Of a DNA stretch of 64,000 nucleotides, positions 50,284 through 56,233 are shown piece by piece. The translations under genes and the position numbers were made by a program. The notes beneath the pieces are model-generated. The model searched no databases. It was not told where the DNA came from and worked only from the letters and a program-made list of their open reading frames with translations. Position 1 is the first letter of the stretch. Every line of letters starts with the position of its first letter. This stretch comes from Escherichia coli. Its GTDB lineage: Bacteria > Pseudomonadota > Gammaproteobacteria > Enterobacterales > Enterobacteriaceae. The stretch lies in NCBI RefSeq assembly GCF_030384885.1, contig NZ_CP128613.1, one strand, 5' to 3'.

Positions 50284-50812
50284 TTTCATTGACAGCCACA
50301 TCATGATGACTGTGGCTGTTAGTTTTTGAGTATTGGTATTCTTATTTCCCTTCTTTAGAGCTGGCTTGTTAAATGCCAGCTTGCAGATTCATCGTTCCAT
50401 CACCAGTACTAAATTCAAGGGAAAATTGCTATTTTTCTTAAAGCATTAAGCATAACCCTTATTTTATAGCGAATATTCCTAAAGGCATTAATGGATGAAA
50501 AAGGGTTTTAATAAACTTCTGTTTTTAGCAATTAGTGCTATTCTTTGTTAAATATGATGATGATAATCTTCTTATTGAAAGAAACAGTTTTCTTATTAAG
50601 CAACAATAACTCATGGTTCATTTTTAAATAAAATAAGAACTATGCGATTTTTAATCTATCGATTAGAAAGTATTAGCAAATTAGCCAAATTGACACCTTC
50701 CCACCTCCAACCAACACTCAATACAGACCTCTGACAACTTAATAAGTTTCATTTTTAACGTCTGATGACTCATCTCTTTCGTGGCTGTATTGTTTGTATA
50801 TGGAGCGTTTAT
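50284..50812. promoter_or_regulatory. About 530-bp strongly AT-rich noncoding leader upstream of the autotransporter gene (likely nucleoid-silenced promoter region)
   Basis: No ORFs; long A/T tracts (for example TTTTTAAATAAAATAAGAACTATG...). Confidence 0.4.
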
Positions 50813-53800
50813 ATGAATAGAATCTATCGCGTGATATGGAATTGCACCCTACAGGTATTTCAGGCCTGCTCGGAATTAACTCGCAGGGTAGGTAAAACAT
50901 CAACGGTTAATTTGCGTAAATCCTCTGGATTGACAACGAAATTCAGTAGATTGACGCTGGGTGTTTTGCTGGCACTAAGCGGTTCAGCGTCTGGTGCGAG
51001 TCTGGAAGTTGATAATGGTCAGATTACCAATATTAATACTGATGTTGCTTACGATGCCTACCTGGTTGGGTGGTATGGCACTGGAGTGCTTAATATTTTG
51101 GCTGGCGGTAATGCCTCCTTAACCACTATTACTACCAGCGTCATTGGTGGTAATGAGGACTCAGAGGGCACCGTTAACGTTTTGGGTGGCACCTGGCGAT
51201 TGTATGATAGCGGAAATAATGCAAGGCCTTTAAATGTGGGTCAATCCGGAACGGGGACGCTGAATATTAAACAGAAGGGTCACGTTGACGGAGGATATTT
51301 AAGGATAGGTTCTTCGACAGGAGGCGTCGGGACGGTCAATGTTGAAGGAGAGGACTCGGTTCTGACGACCGAATTATTCGAAATAGGGAGTTACGGTACA
51401 GGCTCATTAAATATTACGGATAAGGGTTACGTCACGAGTTCAATAGTCGCCATTGTAGGATATCAGGCGAACAGTAATGGTAAGCTTGTCGTTGAAAAGG
51501 GTGGCGAGTGGCTAATAAAAAATAATGATTCCTCAATTGAATTTCAAATTGGTAATCAAGGGACGGGCGAAGCAACTATTCGCGATGGGGGGCTAATTAC
51601 GGCTGAAAATACGATTATCGGTGGCAACCTCACCGGTATCGGAACCCTGAATGTGCAGGATCAAGACTCTGTCATCACGGTACGCAGACTCTATAATGGA
51701 TATTTCGGTAATGGCACAGTCAATATTTCCAATAATGGACTGATTAATAATAAAGAATATTCATTGGTGGGCGTTCAGGACGGGTCCCACGGTGTCGTCA
51801 ACGTGACCGATAAAGGGCATTGGAATTTCCTCGGAACGGGCGAAGCTTTCCGCTATATCTATATCGGTGATGCTGGCGACGGTGAACTTAATGTCTCGAG
51901 TGAAGGCAAAGTAGATTCGGGAATTATCACTGCGGGGATGAAAGAAACAGGCACAGGCAACATTACTGTTAAGGATAAGAACTCCGTTATCACTAATCTC
52001 GGAACTAATCTTGGTTATGACGGCCACGGCGAAATGAATATCAGTAATGAGGGGCTTGTTGTCAGCAACGGAGGAAGCTCACTCGGTTATGGAGAAACCG
52101 GCGTCGGGAAGGTTAGCATCACCACGGGGGGGATGTGGGAGGTCAATAAGAATGTCTATACCACTATTGGTGTTGCGGGCGTCGGAAACCTCAATATCAG
52201 CGATGGCGGTAAGTTCGTATCGCAAAATATTACTTTTTTGGGCGATAAAGCAAGCGGTATCGGCACACTGAACCTGATGGATGCGACATCATCGTTCGAT
52301 ACTGTAGGTATCAATGTCGGTAATTTTGGTAGCGGCATCGTAAATGTCAGTAATGGTGCCACCCTTAATTCAACGGGCTATGGATTTATCGGAGGAAATG
52401 CCTCCGGTAAGGGGATAGTTAATATTTCAACGGATAGTCTCTGGAATTTAAAAACGTCATCTACTAACGCCCAATTGCTACAGGTCGGTGTATTAGGCAC
52501 GGGTGAACTGAATATTACCACCGGAGGTATAGTTAAAGCGCGTGATACACAGATAGCTCTCAATGACAAAAGTAAGGGCGACGTGCGGGTGGATGGGCAG
52601 AACTCTCTTCTTGAAACATTCAATATGAACGTAGGGACGACTGGCACAGGTACGTTAACCCTGACGAATAACGGCACGCTGAATGTCGAAGGTGGAGAAG
52701 TTTACTTAGGTGTTTTTGAGCCTGCTGTAGGAACGCTAAACATTGGTGCTGCTCACGGTGAGGTGGCGGCAGATGCCGGGTTTATCACCAATGCGACGAA
52801 AGTGGAGTTTGGTCTTGGCGAAGGCGTTTTTGTCTTTAATCATACCAATAACAGTGATGCCGGCTACCAGGTCGATATGCTGATTACGGGTGACGATAAA
52901 GACGGAAAAGTGATGCATGATGCAGGCCATACGGTGTTCAATGCAGGGAATACTTATAGCGGTAAAACGCTGGTCAATGACGGCCTCCTGACTATTGCGT
53001 CACATACGGCAGATGGGGTAACAGGCATGGGTTCGAGTGAAGTAACCATTGCAAGCCCCGGTACGCTCGACATTCTCGCATCAACGAACAGCGCAGGAGA
53101 TTACACGCTGACCAATGCGCTCAAAGGCGATGGCTTGATGCGAGTGCAGCTGTCATCCTCCGACAAAATGTTTGGCTTTACCCATGCAACAGGAACTGAA
53201 TTCGCCGGTGTTGCCCAACTGAAAGACAGTACCTTCACACTGGAACGCGACAACACCGCTGCGCTTACTCACGCGATGCTTCAGTCTGACAGTGAAAATA
53301 CCACATCGGTAGAAGTGGGAGAGCAATCCATTGGTGGACTAGCCATGAATGGCGGTACGCTCACTTTCGATACGGATATACCTGCTGCGACGCTTGCGGA
53401 GGGATATATCAGCGTCGATACACTGGTTGTCGGCGCGGGTGACTACACCTGGAAAGGCCGTAACTATCAGGTAAACGGGACGGGCGACGTGCTTATCGAC
53501 GTGCCTAAACCGTGGAATGATCCCATGGCGAATAACCCTCTGACTACGCTCAATTTGCTGGAACACGATGATAGCCATGTCGGCGTTCAACTGGTGAAGG
53601 CGCAAACGGTTATTGGGTCGGGTGGCTCATTAACGTTACGTGATTTACAGGGCGACGAGGTGGAAGCGGACAAAACGTTACACATTGCACAAAACGGAAC
53701 AGTGGTCGCCGAGGGTGATTATGGATTCCGACTCACGACCGCACCTGGTGATGGTTTGTATGTTAACTATGGGCTGAAAGCGCTGAACATCCATGGTGGG

Positions 53801-56233: not shown

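Follow-up and report, generated by a model that had tools for sequence, protein, structure and literature searches.

The 64,000-nucleotide stretch of Escherichia coli DNA analysed here (contig NZ_CP128613.1; hereafter the window) very probably carries, at positions 50813–56233 of its plus strand, an intact chromosomal allele of the YneO/ECSE_1600 family of type Va autotransporters, located at the usual lsrK–hipBA site and predicted to act as a surface-anchored adhesin. The complete coding sequence specifies 1806 amino acids followed by a stop codon, as defined by the open reading frame (ORF), the NCBIfam family model NF011422 and the RefSeq coding sequence WP_106907490.1. RefSeq already has a name for both the family and this exact protein, intact and disrupted copies were reported as a polymorphism in 2008 (PMC2608844), and the intact state is common, so that the feature counts as known.

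Gene, start codon and locus

The gene lies in a single uninterrupted open frame on the plus strand (window 50765–56233), which would encode 1822 residues when read from its first ATG. Translation from the ATG at 50813 gives 1806 residues and a stop, with no stop codon in between. The ATG at 50813 is favoured as the true start because a Shine-Dalgarno-like GGAG (50802–50805, plus strand, by direct reading of the sequence) is positioned 7 nt upstream of it, because the resulting N-terminus, MNRIYRVIWN, falls on position 1 of the Pfam model of the extended signal peptide region (ESPR), with residues 1–47 aligned to model positions 1–47, and because NF011422 aligns from residue 1 to residue 1806 over its positions 1–1806, with a score of 4138.1 bits against a cutoff of 2335. 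K-12 has ACG in place of the upstream ATG at 50765, and the 1822-residue ORF was ruled out on this ground together with the start of the ESPR and of the family model at 50813.

Over its 5421 nt the gene shows 100% identity to that of E. coli 2013C-4282 (NZ_CP027579.1; human stool, USA), in which RefSeq annotates the same 5421 nt as an ‘ECSE_1600 family autotransporter’ (WP_106907490.1), with lsrR–lsrK upstream and hipB–hipA downstream. The hipB–lsrK interval of K-12 MG1655 (NC_000913.3) is occupied by the 5422-nt pseudogene yneO (b4696), formerly ydeK (b1510) and ydeU (b1509). The first-pass annotation had described an uninterrupted ORF at the locus that is a pseudogene in K-12; the translation confirms the former, and the lsrK and hipB flanks in NZ_CP027579.1 and NC_000913.3 confirm the latter. 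An assembly artefact is unlikely as the source of the intact ORF, since the exact protein sequence is found on 355 contigs of a public collection, where its 90%-identity cluster comprises 5726 sequences.

Domain architecture and fold

By its profile matches and a structural model, the protein is assigned as a classical (type Va) autotransporter consisting of an ESPR signal peptide, a β-helical passenger, an autochaperone and a 12-stranded barrel. The ESPR (residues 1–47, window 50813–50953, plus strand) matches PF13018 with an E-value of 5e-14 and is followed by the hydrophobic stretch LTLGVLLALSGSASGA, with a probable signal-peptidase site near residues 60–63 as judged by eye. The whole protein has only two cysteines, C11 and C19, both located in the signal peptide. 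The passenger of about 1450 residues contains 15% glycine and no cysteine, the latter being typical of proteins that cross the outer membrane unfolded.

The N-terminal part of the passenger (50999–52732, plus strand) is built of regular β-helix rungs. Residues 89–617 hold about 17 copies of a GxGxLNI-type motif, spaced about 24–25 residues apart or at double that distance, and the T5SS/PEP-CTERM repeat model TIGR04393 (NCBIfam) matches eight stretches in the N-terminal half. An AlphaFold2 (AF2) model, computed for residues 60–700 only and from single-sequence input, consists entirely of short regular strands, with a mean predicted local distance difference test (pLDDT) of 76.5 and a predicted template modelling score (pTM) of 0.82. 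Its best Foldseek matches are TibA (4Q1Q) and antigen 43 (Ag43; 7KOH, 4KH3 and 7KOB), with probabilities of 0.96–1.00 and E-values from 2e-5 to 1e-3. The middle and C-terminal passenger (about residues 641–1331, 52733–54805, plus strand) is less regular and carries PATR repeats, namely PF12951 at residues 704–728 (E 0.015) and 1253–1281 (E 5e-5) and TIGR02601 at residues 1253–1283.

The passenger is followed by an AC_1, pertactin-like autochaperone (residues 1332–1438, 54806–55126, plus strand; PF18883, E 3.5e-26; PF03212, E 1.8e-10), to which the IcsA autochaperone structures 3ML3 and 5KE1 are matched by sequence. A proline-rich linker connects the autochaperone with the β-barrel domain (residues 1525–1784, 55385–56164, plus strand; PF03797, E 3.9e-41), a region also recognised by TIGR01414 (E 5.5e-123), and the chain ends in KYSW with an aromatic last residue. 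The extended signal peptide, the long repetitive β-helical passenger and the C-terminal barrel, all of which had been proposed from the letters of the sequence, are therefore each recovered, by the ESPR match, by the 24–25-residue rungs with the AF2 model and its TibA/Ag43 fold matches, and by the two barrel profiles, respectively.

It is conceivable, though in our estimate very improbable, that the passenger acts as an enzyme or a toxin, of the protease, lipase or esterase type, and not as an adhesin. Approximately 700 of its residues (about 640–1330) bear weak repeat annotations only and would leave room for an unrecognised functional subdomain. However, the Pfam and NCBIfam profile scans detected no catalytic domain in the passenger, and the passengers of the serine protease autotransporters of Enterobacteriaceae (Hbp, Pet, EspC and SepA) are weak Foldseek matches with E-values above 0.03, against the 2e-5 to 1e-3 of TibA and Ag43. 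Furthermore, the closest NCBIfam neighbours of the protein are the adhesins MisL, AIDA-I, ShdA and YfaL/EhaC.

The region encoding the β-barrel also contains a 233-residue ORF on the minus strand (window 55472–56173). It is open in K-12 too (NZ_CP009685.1, locus 10660–11361), carries no RefSeq annotation and is probably a chance open frame.

Relation to known autotransporters

The assignment to the ECSE_1600 family (NF011422/PRK14849) is based on the full-length match, the lsrK–hipB locus and the name that the exact protein already bears in RefSeq. The prototype, ECSE_1600 of strain SE11, has 1806 residues, the same length as the window protein. There is no difference in kind between the two; the window allele represents a less common variant in sequence, with a pattern of G-runs unlike that of the K-12-type alleles.

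The first-pass annotation had called the protein AIDA-type, which holds in a broad sense only. The C-terminal autochaperone, linker and barrel are homologous to those of AIDA-I, and the AIDA-I transport unit 4MEE is matched over residues 1345–1806 with an E-value of 1e-87. In contrast, the AIDA-I model NF033176 reaches 358.2 of the 1200 bits required by its cutoff, with an alignment restricted to residues 1298–1805 (model positions 801–1286), and the window protein is 1806 residues long as compared with the 1287 positions of that model. Since the score is under the cutoff and the C-terminus alone aligns, orthology with AIDA-I was ruled out. The likeness does not extend to the passenger: the AIDA-type 19-residue repeat (Pfam AIDA domain) gave no match in the Pfam scans, the repeats present being TIGR04393 and PATR, and no autotransporter heptosyltransferase gene of the aah or tibC type adjoins the locus, which lies between lsrK on its upstream side and hipB on its downstream side.

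The self-associating autotransporters Ag43 and TibA (4KH3, 7KOH and 4Q1Q) are E. coli adhesins of the same type Va class, and it is their right-handed β-helices of short repeated rungs that the model of the N-terminal passenger resembles most. They differ from the window protein in sequence (14–18% identity) and in length, the window passenger being about twice as long, and neither a Dam/OxyR-type phase switch nor a TibC glycosyltransferase is evident at the window locus. The K-12 autotransporters YfaL/EhaC, YcgV, YpjA/EhaD, YcgH and YejO belong to the same class and likewise vary from strain to strain between intact gene and pseudogene. The window protein has its C-terminal region in common with YfaL/EhaC, but the YfaL model NF007285 gives 202 bits against a cutoff of 1459, which places YfaL in a different family. 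The Salmonella intestinal-colonisation adhesins MisL and ShdA are among the next-best NCBIfam neighbours through their C-terminal translocator (MisL, E 4e-138, residues 1480–1806); both are under their equivalog cutoffs (462 bits against 1297 for MisL and 224 against 2249 for ShdA), and their passengers have no sequence homology with that of the window protein. The Eaa adhesin was also considered as the identity of the gene and was ruled out, Eaa being a different, prophage-borne gene beside a Thr-tRNA (PMC12399667).

Intact and disrupted copies in complete genomes

A survey of 5426 complete E. coli genomes found the gene in 4363 of them, with at least 80% length coverage in 3952. The matching records were ranked, and 32 evenly spaced rows (H1–H32, the first 32 of the set) were sampled, 26 of which, all of full gene length, were classified by annotation. 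Thirteen are annotated as intact (H1–4, 6, 8, 16, 18, 21, 23, 25, 27 and 32), nine as frameshifted (H5, 7, 10, 11, 12, 15, 19, 29 and 30), and the remaining four (H9, 14, 20 and 28) are split by insertion sequence (IS) elements. The rarity of the intact copy that had been implied by the comparison with K-12 is thus contradicted by the sample, and also by the published polymorphism: SE11 and HS have an intact 1806-residue ECSE_1600, MG1655, E24377A and O157 Sakai have a disrupted copy, and the B2 uropathogenic E. coli (UPEC) strains lack the gene (Oshima et al. 2008, Table 4, PMC2608844). In the genome paper of enteroaggregative E. coli 042, AT-1 genes are described as varying across E. coli between intact genes and pseudogenes, perhaps through functional redundancy.

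While intact copies are common, the window allele itself is not, as only 16 of 4365 matching records reach at least 99% identity with it. It belongs to a loose divergent set, in which H2–H5 are 115–160 substitutions from the window and 82–125 from one another. The window allele and H2–H5 are each 144–165 substitutions from the K-12-type alleles (K-12, H6 and H7). The pattern points to deep allelic lineages or to recombination at the locus.

The alignment with K-12 yneO that the first-pass annotation had proposed for locating the K-12 lesions was carried out on NC_000913.3. The two sequences are 96.8% identical, and over 5421 nt their alignment contains a single indel. There, the six-G run of the window at 54767–54772 (plus strand; CCT-GGGGGG-ACA) corresponds to an eight-G run in K-12 (CCT-GGGGGGGG-CA). 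The reading frame of K-12 shifts at about codon 1319 and reaches a stop at codon 1326, and this +1 G frameshift accounts for the old ydeK and ydeU fragments. The description of the K-12 copy as a fragmented yneO/ydeK–ydeU remnant is accordingly right as to a pseudogene at the locus and wrong as to heavy fragmentation, a single extra G being the only lesion. In-frame K-12-type alleles have seven G (G7) at this site, which is found in many strains. One of them, the intact allele of CRE389 (H8), differs from K-12 by 0 substitutions, and a single G therefore separates K-12 yneO from a natural allele that is intact.

The lesions of the other disrupted copies are diverse. The same eight-G (G8) run is found in H15 and in O104:H4, whose allele differs from that of K-12 by 59 substitutions. 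A second length-variable site is located at 54643–54650 (plus strand), where the window reads GGGTGGTG and the K-12-type allele has an uninterrupted, in-frame G8; it is G9 in H12, G7 in H15 and in the MG1655 record NZ_CP009685.1, and G6 in H19. The run at 52126–52132 (plus strand), G7 in the window allele, is extended by one to a frameshifting G8 in H5, and the G-run at 51587–51592 (plus strand) has lost one G in H29. H10 has a 1-nt deletion outside any run, and the copy of O157:H7 strain 2571 (H30) is disrupted by a tandem duplication of 8 bp (AATCGGCG), which maps to window position 54795; the four split copies contain IS2, ISEc1 or IS3. This lesion map is one of many independent inactivations. 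In O157:H7 strain 2571 the neighbouring hipA-family toxin gene is likewise annotated as truncated.

Are the G-runs a switch?

In eight of the ten sampled frameshift records, both K-12 records included, the lesion falls in a run of at least six G. This raises the question of whether the runs at 52126–52132 and 54767–54772, together with the K-12-type G8 at 54643–54650, act as a slippage switch that turns the gene ON and OFF in a heritable and reversible manner. We regard such phase variation as highly unlikely. On its side are the facts that the in-frame G7 and the out-of-frame G8 occur on otherwise identical alleles (H8 and K-12), that O104:H4 also has G8 on a distinct allele, and that with exact K-12-type flanks G8 occurs in 389 complete genomes and G7 in 1168. 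However, the 389 genomes include laboratory K-12 derivatives among the matches listed, no reversion was observed, and G-runs of 7–8 switch slowly in mismatch-repair-proficient E. coli. The runs are not enriched either: four were observed against 2.9 ± 1.6 expected from a codon shuffle, which leaves the idea of an enrichment designed for switching unsupported, and their presence looks like a side effect of encoding a Gly-rich protein and not like a designed switch.

Homopolymer length is, moreover, a typical error of long-read assembly. The two MG1655 records, NZ_CP009685.1 and NC_000913.3, differ by one G in the G8 run at the position of 54643–54650, with an extra deletion of one G in the former, and this disagreement is probably a long-read homopolymer error. 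A reading of the K-12 lesion as two compensating frameshifts, derived from NZ_CP009685.1, was dropped, given that NC_000913.3 has the +1 G alone and that the second indel is limited to NZ_CP009685.1 and H15, in both of which it may be an assembly error. As the MG1655 assemblies disagree, homopolymer lengths and ‘frameshifted’ flags in long-read assemblies should be taken with caution. The clustering of most of the sampled frameshifts in poly-G runs is only a mildly new point.

Selection on the intact alleles

The ratio of nonsynonymous to synonymous substitution rates (dN/dS) was calculated by the Nei-Gojobori method for the window allele against seven other intact alleles and for 71 allele pairs in total. 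Against the seven, the window allele gives values of 0.11–0.15 overall, with 0.12–0.25 in the N-terminal passenger and 0.05–0.14 in the autochaperone and barrel. Over the 71 intact pairs the median is 0.15 and the range is 0.10–0.23. The intact alleles are under purifying selection.

These values bear directly on the possibility that the lineage of the window has simply not yet been hit by an inactivating mutation and that its protein has no current function. Such neutral decay would be in line with the at least eight different lesions among the 13 disrupted records of the sample, with the three different lesions found on the near-identical K-12-type haplotypes of K-12, H12 and H10, and with the lack of the gene in B2 UPEC strains. 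On the other hand, dN/dS is low in all 71 intact pairs, passenger included, about half of the full-length copies in the sample are intact although the gene offers a target of 5.4 kb with several G-runs, and the exact window protein is shared by the 355 contigs mentioned above. A dN/dS of about 0.15 speaks in favour of a protein that functions wherever its gene is whole, and it speaks against mere neutral decay, which we consider unlikely.

Upstream region and expression

The 529-bp intergenic region between lsrK and the autotransporter gene (50284–50812, plus strand) is presumed to be regulatory. It is AT-rich (GC fraction 0.321; entire window 0.482) and shares 98% identity with its K-12 counterpart. 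For the K-12 yneO/lsrK spacer, a genomic SELEX (systematic evolution of ligands by exponential enrichment) study of RpoD assigned the promoter CTGACA-17-TTTAAT to yneO and gave the spacer an ‘HNS’ flag (PMC3946193). The counterpart of this predicted σ70 promoter in the window is at 50731–50759 (plus strand), where the −10 element (50754–50759) reads TTTAAC owing to a T-to-C change at 50759. A consensus promoter scan found no convincing σ70 site upstream of the gene and did not report the element at 50731–50759. Downstream, a putative terminator-like hairpin with a 12-bp stem and a tail that is not strongly T-rich begins 9 nt past the stop codon (56242–56269, plus strand).

By analogy with the K-12 H-NS data on the AT-rich upstream region, expression under laboratory conditions is probably low owing to H-NS. 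This leads to a reading that qualifies the one given at the outset: the gene may be intact but cryptic, with a whole ORF behind an H-NS-bound, AT-rich promoter region that is silent, so that ordinarily no adhesin would be made and the phenotypic consequence would be small. We give this an even chance. The low GC fraction, the H-NS flag of the K-12 spacer, the altered last position of the −10 element, the outcome of the promoter scan and the loss tolerated in many lineages all speak for it. Nevertheless, the H-NS evidence comes from K-12, a different strain, and the dN/dS of about 0.15 across the intact alleles shows past or present selection on the protein, for which the gene has to be expressed somewhere.

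The case for a surface adhesin

Granted expression, the protein would be expected to follow the established route of autotransporters. It would be exported in a Sec-dependent manner, its transit through the inner membrane being slowed by the ESPR, and its barrel would be inserted by the β-barrel assembly machinery (BAM). The passenger would then emerge C-terminus first, with the autochaperone nucleating its folding, and the end product would be a long β-helix anchored at the surface and serving adhesion, cell–cell aggregation or biofilm formation. From the domain content, the resemblance to the TibA and Ag43 folds and the adhesins among its NCBIfam neighbours (MisL, AIDA-I, ShdA and YfaL), we infer a role in surface adhesion or aggregation.

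Several observations weigh against an adhesin of this kind. The Foldseek TM-scores are low (0.2–0.66), and the structural model behind them was built from a single sequence. Literature searches by yneO, ydeK, ydeU and ECSE_1600, by b-number and by Upa and Eha names found no experiment on any member of the family, whereas YfaL, YcgV and YpjA have functional studies. TTTAAC in place of TTTAAT could make expression weaker still, if the promoter is real. Finally, the frequent and independent losses by frameshift, 8-bp duplication and IS insertion, together with the absence from B2 strains, mean that the gene is dispensable in many niches. With these points taken into account, the reading of an intact YneO-family autotransporter with a proposed adhesin mechanism is still the one that we hold with considerable confidence.

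Other features of the window

The region on the 3′ side of hipBA (window 58100–64000; record L001, 16300–23400) diverges from K-12, where yneL and ydeT–ydeQ stand, and has a GC fraction of 0.40. It contains a frameshifted hypothetical gene, an orphan MbcA/ParS/Xre antitoxin gene (58728–58922, minus strand), a gene for a 568-residue hypothetical protein (59842–61548, minus strand), one for an ankyrin-repeat protein (62250–63632, plus strand), and pieces of helix-turn-helix, IS481 transposase and hydrolase genes. The region resembles an inserted island that has degraded.

Implications

The YneO gene in E. coli is a common, putative accessory adhesin gene that is often and independently inactivated, and the intact form is one of its two usual states. 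Beyond a correct annotation, the finding is of little import: compared with K-12, the strain carries one additional surface adhesin that is potentially functional, and the same is true of many wild E. coli. If the slippage switch were true, it would provide a repeat-based ON/OFF control for an E. coli autotransporter, unlike the epigenetic switch of Ag43, and the K-12 ‘pseudogene’ would be a single step, from G8 to G7, away from a natural intact allele. In any case, K-12 yneO is repairable in principle by a one-G deletion, and the intact allele lends itself to assays of adhesion, aggregation and biofilm formation and to the question of why a protein of 1806 residues is lost so often.

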